From the NCBI GenBank assembly GCA_026023565.1, contig JAPETS010000034.1, positions 124,001 through 188,000 of the forward strand: a DNA stretch of 64,000 nucleotides, read 5' to 3'. Every line of letters begins with the position of its first letter. Position 1 is the stretch's first letter. This DNA is from Cirrosporium novae-zelandiae. Its lineage: Eukaryota. A model generated the notes under the pieces. That model saw only the letters and a list, made by a program, of their open reading frames with translations, ran no database searches and was not told the DNA's origin. Below, one piece after another: positions 8,355 through 27,592 of the stretch. A program made the translations under genes and the position numbers.

Positions 8355-9084
8355 CCTGTTGTGTTGGAATCCAAATGAAAATAATCGTAGCTGTATCAAT
8401 TCTCACGCTGGACTATGGTCCTGCACCAAGGACAAGATCATCTAGCAATCAAGCCATCATAATTCCAAGACTCGCATCGATTGCCACAGCCCAAAAGCAA
8501 AGGAAAACGTTCATAGGTTGGAAGGAACCAAAAACTTCGGCACTCAAGGCTGCTGAGACACATGAGCTGAATTGATGTCTATCCTCCCTCAAATTATGTG
8601 TCTGATCTGACCTATGCCGAGGGACAGCCTATTGAGCAGACTTGATCTGGATTTATTGATTTATTCTCGCAGTAAAGGTTATATTGTTCAAGGACAATGA
8701 GCGACAGTTGATGGTTGATATTTCCCTTAGAACCAAGAGCGGGTACCTGAATAAATATCAACGCCCTTGTCCCTTGCTCCAAGTTAAAGGAATTAAGGAA
8801 TTAAGTTCCTGGTCATTTGTCGCTCCCTTCTGACCAGCCAGCAGCAGCCAGCAGCCCAGCATTAACGCCGGTGCGCCGGTTCTCACGCGACCCCGCAAAA
8901 CCTCGACAGCCTCAGGCCACAAGGCCACAGCTCCTGCAAGCCCACTAACCACTACTCGCTCACTAACGCTACAGCTAAGCTCAAACTTCAGCAAAAATAA
9001 GCTTGCATTCAGCCCCATCCCACCAAAAACATTAGACTTGGATACCGATATCTTGCAATGTTACCAAAAACAACAAAAACAATC

Positions 9085-9218: not shown

Positions 9219-9330
9219 TGATGAGGGTGGGATTCGAACCCACGCGGATTGCTCCACATGGAAACACCTCTTTTTTGCAAAGAGCTGCGGAACCTGAACC
9301 ATGCGCCATAGACCACTCGGCCACCACATC
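9219..9330 (-). tRNA. tRNA-Leu(CAG) with 30-nt intron
   Basis: Minus strand reads GATGTGG-TGGCCGAGTGG (A box), anticodon stem CATGG/CCATG with CAG at 9296-9294, intron 9263-9292, long variable arm, GGTTCGAATCC B box, T-run terminator. The acceptor stem has one U-U mismatch. Confidence 0.93.
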
Positions 9331-18066: not shown

Positions 18067-18092
18067 TACCTACCTAGGTACCTAGGTAGGTA
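18067..18092. repeat. Perfect 26-bp palindrome in a TACC/GGTA-rich tract
   Basis: tacctacctaggtacctaggtaggta equals its own reverse complement; related motifs continue to about 18190. Confidence 0.85.
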
Positions 18093-24730: not shown

Positions 24731-25561
24731 AATGTATTAGATTGGAGTCATGGATTCAAAAATGGCCTTGCAATTTGCATTTGGGCGGATACGTGAACAA
24801 TTAAGTTATCTTTTGTGCTTCGGGAAAAGTTGGGCTCCCCCAGAGAGCTGAATGCTTTGGCTTTTATATATCTGGGTCAAGGTACACTGTACACAGCGAT
24901 GATGTTTGATTACGATGTCATATGGTTTGATGATGAACTTAAATGGATGGGCGTAGGATGAATACTCCTCTCCGGGTTTGCAGTAATTAAGATCTAGATA
25001 CCAGCTGATATGAAAGAAATTTCGATATGTTATTATTCAAAATATTGTCTGACGTATTTTCAAAATCGGTACAGGGATGTACTGAAATAAATACAAAGTT
25101 ATTTCTAAGGTTACTAGGTACTTAGAGTTTATTTGTTTCGGGTTAGTGGCCGGCAGAAGAAAGCCTTTGCCGAATGGTTGGCTCGGTGTTATCTCGGTCT
25201 GATGAAATATATCGCATGATATCTTCAATGCACTGTACTGTAACATAAAATCTCTTCCATATCATTTTTTCTCTTCTGAATTTGCTTACACAGTACAATC
25301 AGACTAGGATTCTATCGAGTTGAATTGTTGAATATAAGTCGTTTTTTATCAAAGTAGTAACTTCTTCTCACCCGAAAACTCTTACTGGAAATGAATAGCT
25401 ACTGATTCCATTATCCAGATCAGACCACTAAACCTCCTCCGAAGAGGTCGAAGCCCTTCAAGCCACACCATTTGAGTAACCGTGATACTCTCCATCCCTC
25501 CACCAACCATGAAGACGAGTAGCAGGAACATGTCCCGTGATCAAGGTATCTAGATAGCACT

Positions 25562-25703
25562 GCATGAAACCGGTGTTCGGTATCTCAGTCTCTTGTGCAT
25601 CCACATTCTTGAAAAACAGAATGCGGTCTGGAGCTATGAGATTCCCGTTCTGAGATGATACGGTTATAACTTGATCTGGATAATTCCAGCGAAAGGATCA
25701 TGC
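25562..25703 (+). promoter_or_regulatory. TPP riboswitch aptamer in a 5'-leader intron
   Basis: P1 GCATGA(25562-67)/TCATGC(25698-703); P2 AACCG/CGGTT; GGTGTTCGG..CCGTTC-TGAGAT with extended P3; P4/P5 CTTGATCTGGATAATTCCAGCGAAAGG. Followed by branch site TACTAAT and acceptor TAG at 25756. Confidence 0.95.
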
Positions 25704-25762
25704 TTTTTTCTCCCCTCCTATTACGTATGAACATATGAGGATACTAATTCGTGTAGGGCGAA

Positions 25763-27592
25763 ATGATGGCATCGAATTCAGAGTCAGGAGATGTCACCAA
25801 CGGCCACGGTCGAGTCAATGCGGATGCTGTCAATCTTGATGGCGAAAAGGACCCTCAAGCTGTCAGAGAGTTGGGTAGATTGACCGATAATACGTCTACC
25901 ATCGAAGGATTCGCTGGATATATGAAACATCTCAACAATGTACTATCACACCATAATGTTGAAGCTCGGGGCATCCAACGAGTCCCCACCAGTGAACGGA
26001 TTGAGCGCCTTCGGTGGACAAATATAGTTCAGATGTTTCTGTTATGGTTCTCCGTCAATCTGGCTGCCAACAATATCACGCTCGGCATGCTTGGGCCAGC
26101 CGTATACGCGTTGAGCTTCAAAGACTCCGCCTTGACCAGCGTCTTCGGCGCTCTCGTTGGAAGCATCCCTGTTGCGTATCTGGCAACCTTTGGCCCATTG
26201 TCCGGCAATCGTACAATGGTTTGTGACACCCCATAGAAGTTTCCTTAATGGCGGTTTATAGACATAGTTTACTGATAATAGATAGATCTTTGCAAGATAT
26301 ACTATGGGCTGGTGGCCCAGTAGGCTCATTGCGGTCCTGAACATCATTGTCTCCATCGGATACGCGTTGATTGACTGTGTTATTGCTGGTCAGATACTTT
26401 CCGCGGTATCACCCCATGGTAGTTTATCCATTGTTGTCGGTACGTCTTGTGCATGGAATATACTATCACCTAATACGCTCTGATCCCCATAAACAGGCAT
26501 TATTATCGTAGCAGTCATCACCTGGGTTGTCACCAGTTTTGGCATCAGGATATTCCACCATTACGAACGGTAAAATCCCACCCCCCCCAAACCTACACTA
26601 ACCTTCACACAAACCCCTACTTACTAACTTAAAAAAAATCTAGATGGGCCTTCCTCCCTCAACTAATCGCCATCATCATCGCCTTCAGCGTGACAGCGAA
26701 ACACTACACCCTCACAACCCCGTCCTCCGGCTCCCCCGCCACCGTAACCGGAAACCGCATCTCTTTTTTCTCTCTCTGCCTCAGCGCAGCAATAACCTAC
26801 TCAGGCGCGGCTTGCGACTACTTCGTCTACTACCCGCCGCAAACGCCACGAATAATTCTATTCACGCTCATCCTGCTATCCTTAACCTGTTCCTTCACGC
26901 TAACCTTCCTTTTGGGAATCGGGCTCGCCTCCGCCCTCCCCACCCTGACCACCTGGTCAACCGCCTACAACACCTCTCAAGGCGCGCTGCTCGTAACCTC
27001 CCTAACCAGCTCCCCGCTTCATCACGCCTTTGGCTCCTTCATTTCCATCCTGGTCGCACTCGGCCTCATCGCAAACCTGATTCCGCCAACCTACTCCTCC
27101 GCCCTGAACCTCCAAATCCTCTCACCAACACTTGCCCTGGTCCCGCGCGTCTTCTGGAATACCCTATGCGTGATAACCTATACGGCGTGTGCCCTCACGG
27201 GCCGCAACTACCTCGCCTCCATATTTACAAACTTCCTCGCCCTCATGGGCTATTGGGTCGCCATCTGGGTTTCCATCACGCTGGAAGAACACCTCCTATT
27301 TCGCCGCTCGTCGCACATAAACTTCCGCTCTGAATCCTCCCTCGCGGGCCCTTATAACTGGGAGGTCTGGAACCAGCGTGAGAAGCTGCCCGTTGGGATT
27401 GCGGCGCTGATGGCATTTCTGGTAGGGTGGGTCGGCGCGGTGTTGTGCATGGCGCAGGTGTGGTATGTGGGACCGATTGCGGGGTTGGTGGGGGAGTTTG
27501 GGGCCGATTTGGGGAATTATGTGGGGTTTTTATGGGCCGGGGTGGTCTATCCGGTTTTGAGGTATTGGGAGATTAAAAGATTTGGGAGGTGA
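25763..27592 (+). CDS. NCS1-family (purine-cytosine permease, Fcy2/Tpn1-like) transporter, probably for thiamine or a precursor
   Basis: EARGIQRV, LWFSVN, GPLSGNRTM|IFARYTMGWWP, DYFVYYP, FTNFLALMGYW, WYVGPIA motifs; many TM segments; introns 26219-26285, 26440-26496, 26570-26643. Substrate inferred only from the riboswitch. Confidence 0.92.

Follow-up and report, generated by a model that had tools for sequence, protein, structure and literature searches.

A predicted TPP riboswitch of the donor-masking type upstream of an NCS1 transporter gene, with a probably incidental 13-nt complement to its P4/P5 arm

In NMT1 and THI4 of Neurospora, the TPP aptamer's P4-P5 portion masks the proximal 5' splice site, according to the accessible parts of PMC3597705 and PMC5997356. 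For NCU01977, the available portion of PMC3597705 describes an alpha element with the consensus RGCGGYRRY, which is located in the intron after S1, lies about 530 nt from alpha' (the 3' strand of P1) and shows conservation across 16 of 18 species. TPP riboswitches are also carried by an AN4526-like 'putative transporter' class (available text of PMC5882874, PMC5997356, PMC8786325 and PMC11683625). The sections of PMC5882874 at hand class these transporter genes as type I/III and confine long-distance pairing to urea transporters, and those of PMC8786325 present the TPPsw-NUC class as short of experimental validation. A distal partner of P4/P5 or masking of an acceptor in fungi is not described in the parts of the literature that we covered; the accessible text of PMC2467506 and PMC11900860 holds nothing on either.

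The window, the whole 64-kb stretch of Cirrosporium novae-zelandiae DNA that was analyzed, contains a TPP aptamer element in front of a transporter gene, with the following features:

25562-25703 (+), TPP aptamer, with P1 25562-67/25698-703, P2 25569-72/25661-64 and a long P3
25670-72/25693-95 and 25676-79/25686-89 (+), P4 and P5 of the aptamer, respectively, placed by Rfam and helix pairing
25742-25756 (+), branch site TACTAAT (25742-25748) and acceptor A2 (AG 25755-25756) of the riboswitch intron, predicted from sequence
25763-27592 (+), NCS1 purine-cytosine-permease-like 'nucleoside transporter' of 543 aa (PF02133, E 6.8e-7)
25763-26218, 26286-26439, 26497-26569 and 26644-27592 (+), predicted transporter exons, with ends read by eye

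The Rfam family RF00059 matches 25617-25714 with E 3.4e-6; its 40.1 bits fall short of the gathering score (54.3), and a whole-window Rfam scan at the gathering score misses this aptamer. The P1, P2, P4 and P5 helices all pair, the P1-P5 fold carries the GAGAU, GCG and UAAU motifs, and the orthologues likewise score below gathering. Judged by these features the element is a TPP aptamer, with TPP binding predicted. The top homologues of the transporter are named NCS1 nucleoside transporter or purine-cytosine permease; by its sequence, the host belongs to the AN4526-like NCS1 'putative transporter' class already known for TPP riboswitches.

There are three TPP matches in the genome: the window locus, THI4 (L003, identified via PF01946) and a third locus, L002. 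A paralogous NCS1 permease (L085; G000:C23:466943-467203) is 57% identical in the tested segment, and a core pattern search found no aptamer core in its upstream 1.5 kb. One genome-wide search for NMT1/THI5 (PF09084), in a genome with introns, gave no match, and THI4 is present. If this absence is real, the fungus must import the pyrimidine half of thiamine, which suggests that the TPP-regulated NCS1 permease imports it. The upstream neighbor of the permease encodes a Zn2Cys6 fungal transcription factor (PF00172, PF04082; 21962-24730, +) and ends about 1 kb before the permease start. Elsewhere in the window, a tRNA-like gene whose anticodon loop carries a long insertion was seen at 9219-9330 (-).

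We collected orthologues by a metagenome contig scan and used the best 80 of 119 confirmed loci. A pattern search found the TPP core in 66 of these 80, and 47 distinct leaders were analyzed; duplicates were left out, as were the 14 loci without a core by pattern (eight with at most 425 nt upstream, six with more than 900 nt). Rfam, run on 13 of the 80 loci, reported TPP in 12. The aptamer pattern matched no stretch in viral contigs, and none of 21 candidate stretches in prokaryote genome contigs was confirmed. The comparison defines a platform around two donors, with these counterparts in the window (a slash marks a splice junction):

25476-25487 (+), predicted distal donor S1 (GTAACC at 25476 or GTGATA at 25482, 70 or 64 nt before S2)
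25509-25545 (+), 5' part of the overlapping uORF, with the ATG 37 nt before S2
25522-25545 (+), conserved donor-proximal anti-aptamer with GC, GGAA, TGTCC and GATCAAG blocks, which pairs with P4/P5/L5/P5'
25546-25551 (+), predicted proximal donor S2 (AAG/GTATCT), in the same context in the orthologues and in the THI4 leader (L003)

A distal donor is common to the 47 distinct leaders, at about 48-83 nt ahead of S2, and the uORF ATG stands at 3n+1 from S2 in 46 of them. Of the 42 leaders that could be assigned (window included; 6/48 unassigned), 40 have the uORF out of frame and overlapping the main start; in the window, splicing at S2 would give a uORF of 39 codons that runs out of frame across the main ATG. 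In 44/47 orthologues, the duplex between the P4/P5/L5 arm and the strand preceding S2 reaches -14 kcal/mol or stronger. The strand prefers its own arm over swapped ones (p=0.0003 in 19 non-redundant rows), and the extension across P5 is by itself significant (p=2e-5). The cassette profile of the orthologues matches the window with E 1.2e-13, and the proximal mask is intact there (-21.1 kcal/mol vs -19.4 to -20.0 for the distal 13-mer described below). As in type I platforms, two predicted donors, placed by position against the 47 orthologues, flank the uATG in a 5'UTR intron, and the strand at the proximal donor is complementary to P4/P5. On this sequence evidence, the conserved, covarying platform is the donor-proximal strand, which is of the known NMT1/THI4 type.

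An AGTAGC-like motif was seen within the overlapping uORF in 40 of the 46 leaders examined (25518-25523 in the window). In one group of orthologues (L022, L041, L045, L050, L053, L055-L057, L066, L068, L070 and L078) it complements 6-9 bp just before branch A of the riboswitch intron at -9 to -13.6 kcal/mol, a strength matched by no more than 2% of 44 control branch sites. This pairing is weak in the window (-2.4; 25518-25523 with 25742-25745) and is not significant over 20 non-redundant rows (p=0.31). Possible roles of the motif are clade-specific masking of the branch site or coding for a conserved Ser-Ser in the uORF peptide. Five other leaders (L027, L033, L052, L054 and L059) have TCGAG before the distal donor, an echo of the TCAAG before S2; in these, the P4 strand might mask either donor.

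The earlier note had drawn attention to a perfect 13-nt complement of the aptamer arm further upstream, preceded by a short uORF and two donor-like sites. All of these elements were recovered:

25354-25362 (+), predicted weak donor(s) D0, GTAGTA starting at 25354 or GTAACT at 25357, for an intron of 65 or 62 nt
25391-25405 (+), 4-codon uORF ATG AAT AGC TAC TGA, presumably within the predicted upstream intron
25401-25406 (+), branch-site-like ACTGAT of the predicted upstream intron, with branch A at 25405
25410-25422 (+), 13-nt distal complement, which straddles the predicted acceptor A1 (duplex of -19.4 to -20.0 kcal/mol)

The reverse complementarity between 25410-25422 (ATTATCCAGATCA) and 25672-25684 (TGATCTGGATAAT) is exact at an offset of 262 nt, and the pair G25423-U25671 extends the helix to 14 bp. 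The target consists of the last 5' base of P4, J4/5, the 5' strand of P5 and five of the six L5 bases. Riboswitch identity, the P4/P5/L5 target and the rivalry for one aptamer strand had thus been read correctly. The three upstream segments that had been proposed as competitors all exist, but not all of them compete: 25476-25484 pairs with 25659-25667 (P2'/J2-4) in a helix that is nested within, and compatible with, the 13-mer helix, and only the donor-proximal strand 25522-25545 competes with both.

How unusual is such a match? A complement of at least 13 nt to 25650-25705 arose in one of 5000 dinucleotide shuffles of 25100-25649, and none of 479 plus-strand segments of the other loci has a complement of at least 12 nt. 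Exact inverted repeats of at least 13 nt and no more than 1 kb apart are expected about 0.8 times per 64-kb window, and two were seen. The only other one is a perfect 13-bp adjacent inverted repeat (a 26-nt palindrome) at 18067-18092. The unusual point is only that the inverted repeat falls on the aptamer arm; the chance of this per riboswitch is roughly 2e-4 to 1e-3, which is unusual, not overwhelming. The 13-mer itself was found at two further places in the 31.4-Mb genome. A repeat origin was rejected: the region 25230-25500 is single-copy in the genome, and a blastn comparison of the leader with the loci had no match below E 0.3. Another 13-nt match to the aptamer, unrelated to the first, is located at 8640-8652 (+), where 13 nt are identical to the aptamer core (ACTTGATCTGGAT) with no further aptamer features nearby; we take it as chance.

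From its sequence, the 13-mer is predicted to straddle the 3' acceptor of a small upstream 5'UTR intron, an overlap that the earlier note had missed. The predicted acceptor A1 is the CAG at 25416-25418 (ATTATCCAG/ATCA), 13 nt past branch A and 127 nt before S2, and 25354/25357 would be the ordinary donor of this intron. Acceptor-like motifs 80-135 nt before S2 occur in 7/17 non-redundant orthologues vs 2/44 control windows further upstream; the five tree rows nearest to the window are all among those marked as having the motif. Weak GT[AG] sites 58-66 nt before their own acceptor are present in several orthologues (L013, L015, L039), and the THI4 leader of the same genome has the same upstream-intron layout. 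Removal of the upstream intron would eliminate the 4-codon uORF and cut the 13-mer to ATCA. There is a pyrimidine-rich tract at about 25250-25285, which we take to argue for a transcription start upstream of D0, and a TATAAG at 25333-25338, which presumably argues for a start downstream of it.

Complementarity of such acceptors to the aptamer arm was not enriched: 16 orthologous acceptors (two of their windows mis-registered by 8 nt) had a mean of -8.1 vs -8.5 in 34 controls (p=0.72). Conserved acceptor masking was rejected on this comparison. Among 92 other acceptor-like sites of the window, one scores -19.1. In the THI4 leader (L003:1342-1360; G000:C74), the predicted upstream acceptor TAG/ATCGAGT complements the P4/P5 junction over 10 bp including 2 G-U (-13.3 kcal/mol), sharing the AG/ATC register with the permease 13-mer.

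The earlier note had named conservation in orthologous leaders as a check on the 13-mer. It was not conserved: a distal Watson-Crick complement longer than 10 nt is found in none of the 47 orthologous leaders, all of them distant, and the longest measures 4-10 nt in all 47. The distal sequence available for this comparison was at least 400 nt in 35/47 leaders and at least 150 nt in 44/47. With G-U pairs allowed in the same register, the best orthologue reached 12/13, in one case only; distal duplexes of -20 or stronger occur in 4/47 orthologues at scattered, unrelated positions. Since all orthologues are distant, this absence excludes an ancestral 13-mer, not a young one. The branch that ends in the window gene is long and isolated (0.44), identity does not exceed 73% in the best-conserved segment of the protein, and the leader of the gene aligns to no other leader upstream of the cassette. 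The nested S1/P2' helix was also compared: it reaches -10.9 in the window vs a mean of -4.3 and a best value of -9.3 in 45 orthologues. A conserved S1/P2' helix was therefore rejected, and the helix is lineage-specific. As judged by these alignments, the 13-mer is lineage-restricted and lies outside the conserved platform.

The most probable reading is that the locus carries a standard type I (NMT1/THI4-type) TPP riboswitch on an AN4526-like NCS1 transporter, and that the 13-mer is incidental and gone once the upstream intron is spliced. At low TPP, the P4/P5/L5 arm would pair with 25522-25545 and mask S2. S1 (25476/25482) would then be joined to 25757, which would take out the uATG at 25509 and allow the transporter to be made. 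When TPP is high, the aptamer would fold and S2 would be used, resulting in the 39-codon out-of-frame uORF that overlaps the main ATG (OFF). The 13-mer would consist of the last nucleotides of the small 5'UTR intron upstream and of the 4 nt with which the following exon begins. If this intron is spliced before transcription reaches the aptamer arm some 255 nt downstream, only 4 nt of the element would be left; alternatively, the transcript may start downstream of the 13-mer. The complementarity would serve no necessary role, being either a coincidence restricted to the lineage or a neutral mutation that made an inverted repeat. The basis of this reading is the sequence, the conservation and covariation of the proximal platform, and the absence of the distal element in distant orthologues; from these we infer the splice sites, transcription start, splicing timing and TPP responsiveness.

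Several results argue for an incidental 13-mer. The proximal platform is conserved, covarying and intact here, with a duplex as strong as that of the 13-mer; the uORF frame is conserved, and the distal complement does not exceed 10 nt in 47/47. The few strong distal duplexes are scattered, acceptors are no more complementary than controls, and both the acceptor-like site at -19.1 and the match at 8640-8652 illustrate what the window yields elsewhere. The confinement of long-distance pairing to urea transporters in the available text of PMC5882874 points the same way. Other results speak against it. The chance per riboswitch is low and the match falls on a predicted acceptor; the 13-mer helix encloses another lineage-specific helix, which covers S1; and the unspliced RNA favors the 13-mer state by about 5 kcal/mol over the proximal state, with A1 and S1 fully masked. 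D0 is weak, so its splicing could be delayed, the distance of all orthologues leaves room for a young function, and an NCU01977-like alpha element of the same genome is also 13-bp perfect.

In a reading that we consider possible but doubtful, the P4/P5/L5 arm would have acquired a long-range partner on the preceding intron's 3' acceptor, and TPP would control inclusion of the small uORF exon through masking of that acceptor and bridging, atop the ancestral donor mask. Its full form, lineage-specific acceptor masking plus a bridging platform with all uORFs skipped at low TPP, is equally or slightly more doubtful. At low TPP, the free arm would pair with 25410-25423 and hide A1, the nested helix 25476-84/25659-67 would hide S1, and S2 would be looped in. 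D0 (25354/57), brought near A2, would be spliced to 25757, so that the middle exon is left out along with every uATG (ON). When TPP is high, the aptamer would fold, freeing A1 and S2, and the middle exon with the uATG at 25509 would be retained (OFF).

In the folding model, a single fold holds both helices in unspliced RNA, with a probability of 0.96-0.995 for the 13-mer pair and unpaired fractions of 0.00 for A1 and 0.03 for S1. The energies, which are without tertiary contacts or TPP, are -107.5 kcal/mol for the 13-mer state vs -102.4 for the proximal and -100.2 for the aptamer state, so that the 13-mer state is ahead of the aptamer by about 7 kcal/mol. This model is unreliable, however: only in 14/47 orthologues does it place the conserved strand at S2 on the arm. 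Both extra helices sit on splice sites, and the upstream acceptor of THI4 in the same genome also pairs with its own arm, as noted above. The geometry is sensible, with 53-56 nt from D0 to the element and 72 nt from the target to A2; the 13-bp alpha of L002 shows 34 and 67 nt, and Li and Breaker give less than 60 nt on each side (available part of PMC3597705). According to the same text, NCU01977 retains P4/P5-S4 pairing alongside its long-range helix, which makes an intact proximal strand compatible with masking. On the other hand, no orthologue (0/47) shows masking, acceptor complementarity is unenriched, D0 is a poor donor, and transcription of 25354-25422 is presupposed. The short upstream intron would also have to escape splicing during the transcription of about 255 further nt. 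In yeasts, splicing is rapid and co-transcriptional. The looping toward the 25354/25357 donor that the earlier note had suggested is geometrically sensible and possible, but none of the 47 distant orthologous leaders has a distal complement above 10 nt. If masking were true, fungal splicing control would gain a further logic, in which an acceptor is masked and an exon skipped, and the locus would show how a riboswitch platform was rewired within one lineage.

Tuning of the TPP threshold, the other role considered in the earlier note, is improbable. The upstream intron would be unused and the 13-mer would stay in exon 1 of a transcript starting near 25370-25410, after the TATAAG that is indeed present at 25333-25338. 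As a decoy it would compete with the aptamer and the S2 mask, so that higher TPP is needed to switch, and the cost of the aptamer fold against the free ensemble does rise from 4.3 kcal/mol without the element to 7.9 with it. But this state masks S1 and leaves S2 free, contrary to ON at low TPP, the branch-site/acceptor motif is placed as in orthologues, and the 13-mer is unconserved in 47 leaders. It is very improbable that the S1-uATG-anti-aptamer cassette was duplicated in tandem (apparent period of about 119 nt) and that the 13-mer is what is left of one copy, with inherited complementarity. For this, GTAAC, ATGAA, TAGC and GATCA repeat at offsets of about 118-121 nt and a post hoc global alignment gives p=0.027, but it is unsupported by local alignment (p=0.34) and by the orthologous-cassette profile, which matches 25456-25560 (E 1.2e-13) and not 25250-25455.

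The earlier note had pointed to the long-distance pairing of NCU01977; the comparison holds only by analogy, as alpha there pairs with P1' and not with P4/P5 (available part of PMC3597705). As far as that source goes, NCU01977/DUR31 and the window are alike in a long-range helix of at least 11 bp and, if D0 is the partner donor, in similar donor and acceptor distances. Type II spacing (alpha at most about 60 nt downstream of the activated donor, alpha' near the acceptor) would hold with D0 as that donor (53-56 nt; 72 nt to A2) but not with the orthologous S1, which lies downstream of the element. Unlike NCU01977, the window has a P4/P5/L5 target and an AU-rich element that overlaps an acceptor, is situated upstream of S1 and is unconserved. 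The target 25672-25684 is not P1' (25698-25703), and ATTATCCAGATCA does not fit RGCGGYRRY. Conservation and covariation are absent, with no complement above 10 nt in 47 distant orthologues, and the host is an NCS1 gene (PF02133) with a 5'UTR intron, not a urea/DUR31-type transporter with a coding-region intron. By target strand, consensus, host gene and conservation, the 13-mer is not an NCU01977-type element; by analogy, it may work like one. L002 does fit the consensus: its alpha/alpha' pair (L002:1213-1225 and 1588-1600; G000:C43) is 13 bp perfect and lies 34 nt after a GTGAGT donor. Layout and consensus point to L002 being NCU01977/DUR31; a Pfam search on two pieces of it gave no match.

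With NMT1/THI4 of Neurospora, as far as the available descriptions go, the window shares the target arm, the proximal mask and the uORF OFF product; unlike the window, these genes have no distal P4/P5 partner in those descriptions. In the THI4 leader of the same genome, the 3' half of the aptamer is near-identical and the upstream-intron layout is the same. Another close system is the TPPsw-NUC class (AN4526-like; available parts of Mukherjee 2018, PMC5882874; Donovan 2018, PMC5997356; Vargas-Junior 2022, PMC8786325), which is of the same family (PF02133, NCS1) and has the aptamer in a 5'UTR intron with the same S1-uORF-S2 layout. A Bipolaris example (PMC5882874, Fig. S4-3, in the portion available) has the same uORF motif and GATCAAG/GT context as the window. 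What sets the window apart is the 13-nt distal complement with the nested S1 helix, which appears in no case described in the accessible text and in none of the 47 orthologues. Most likely, the locus is one more member of a described, experimentally untested riboswitch class and as such of little significance. The comparison of orthologues sharpens the conserved platform of this class: a covarying mask of about 25 nt that extends across P5, together with a uORF kept at 3n+1 from S2.
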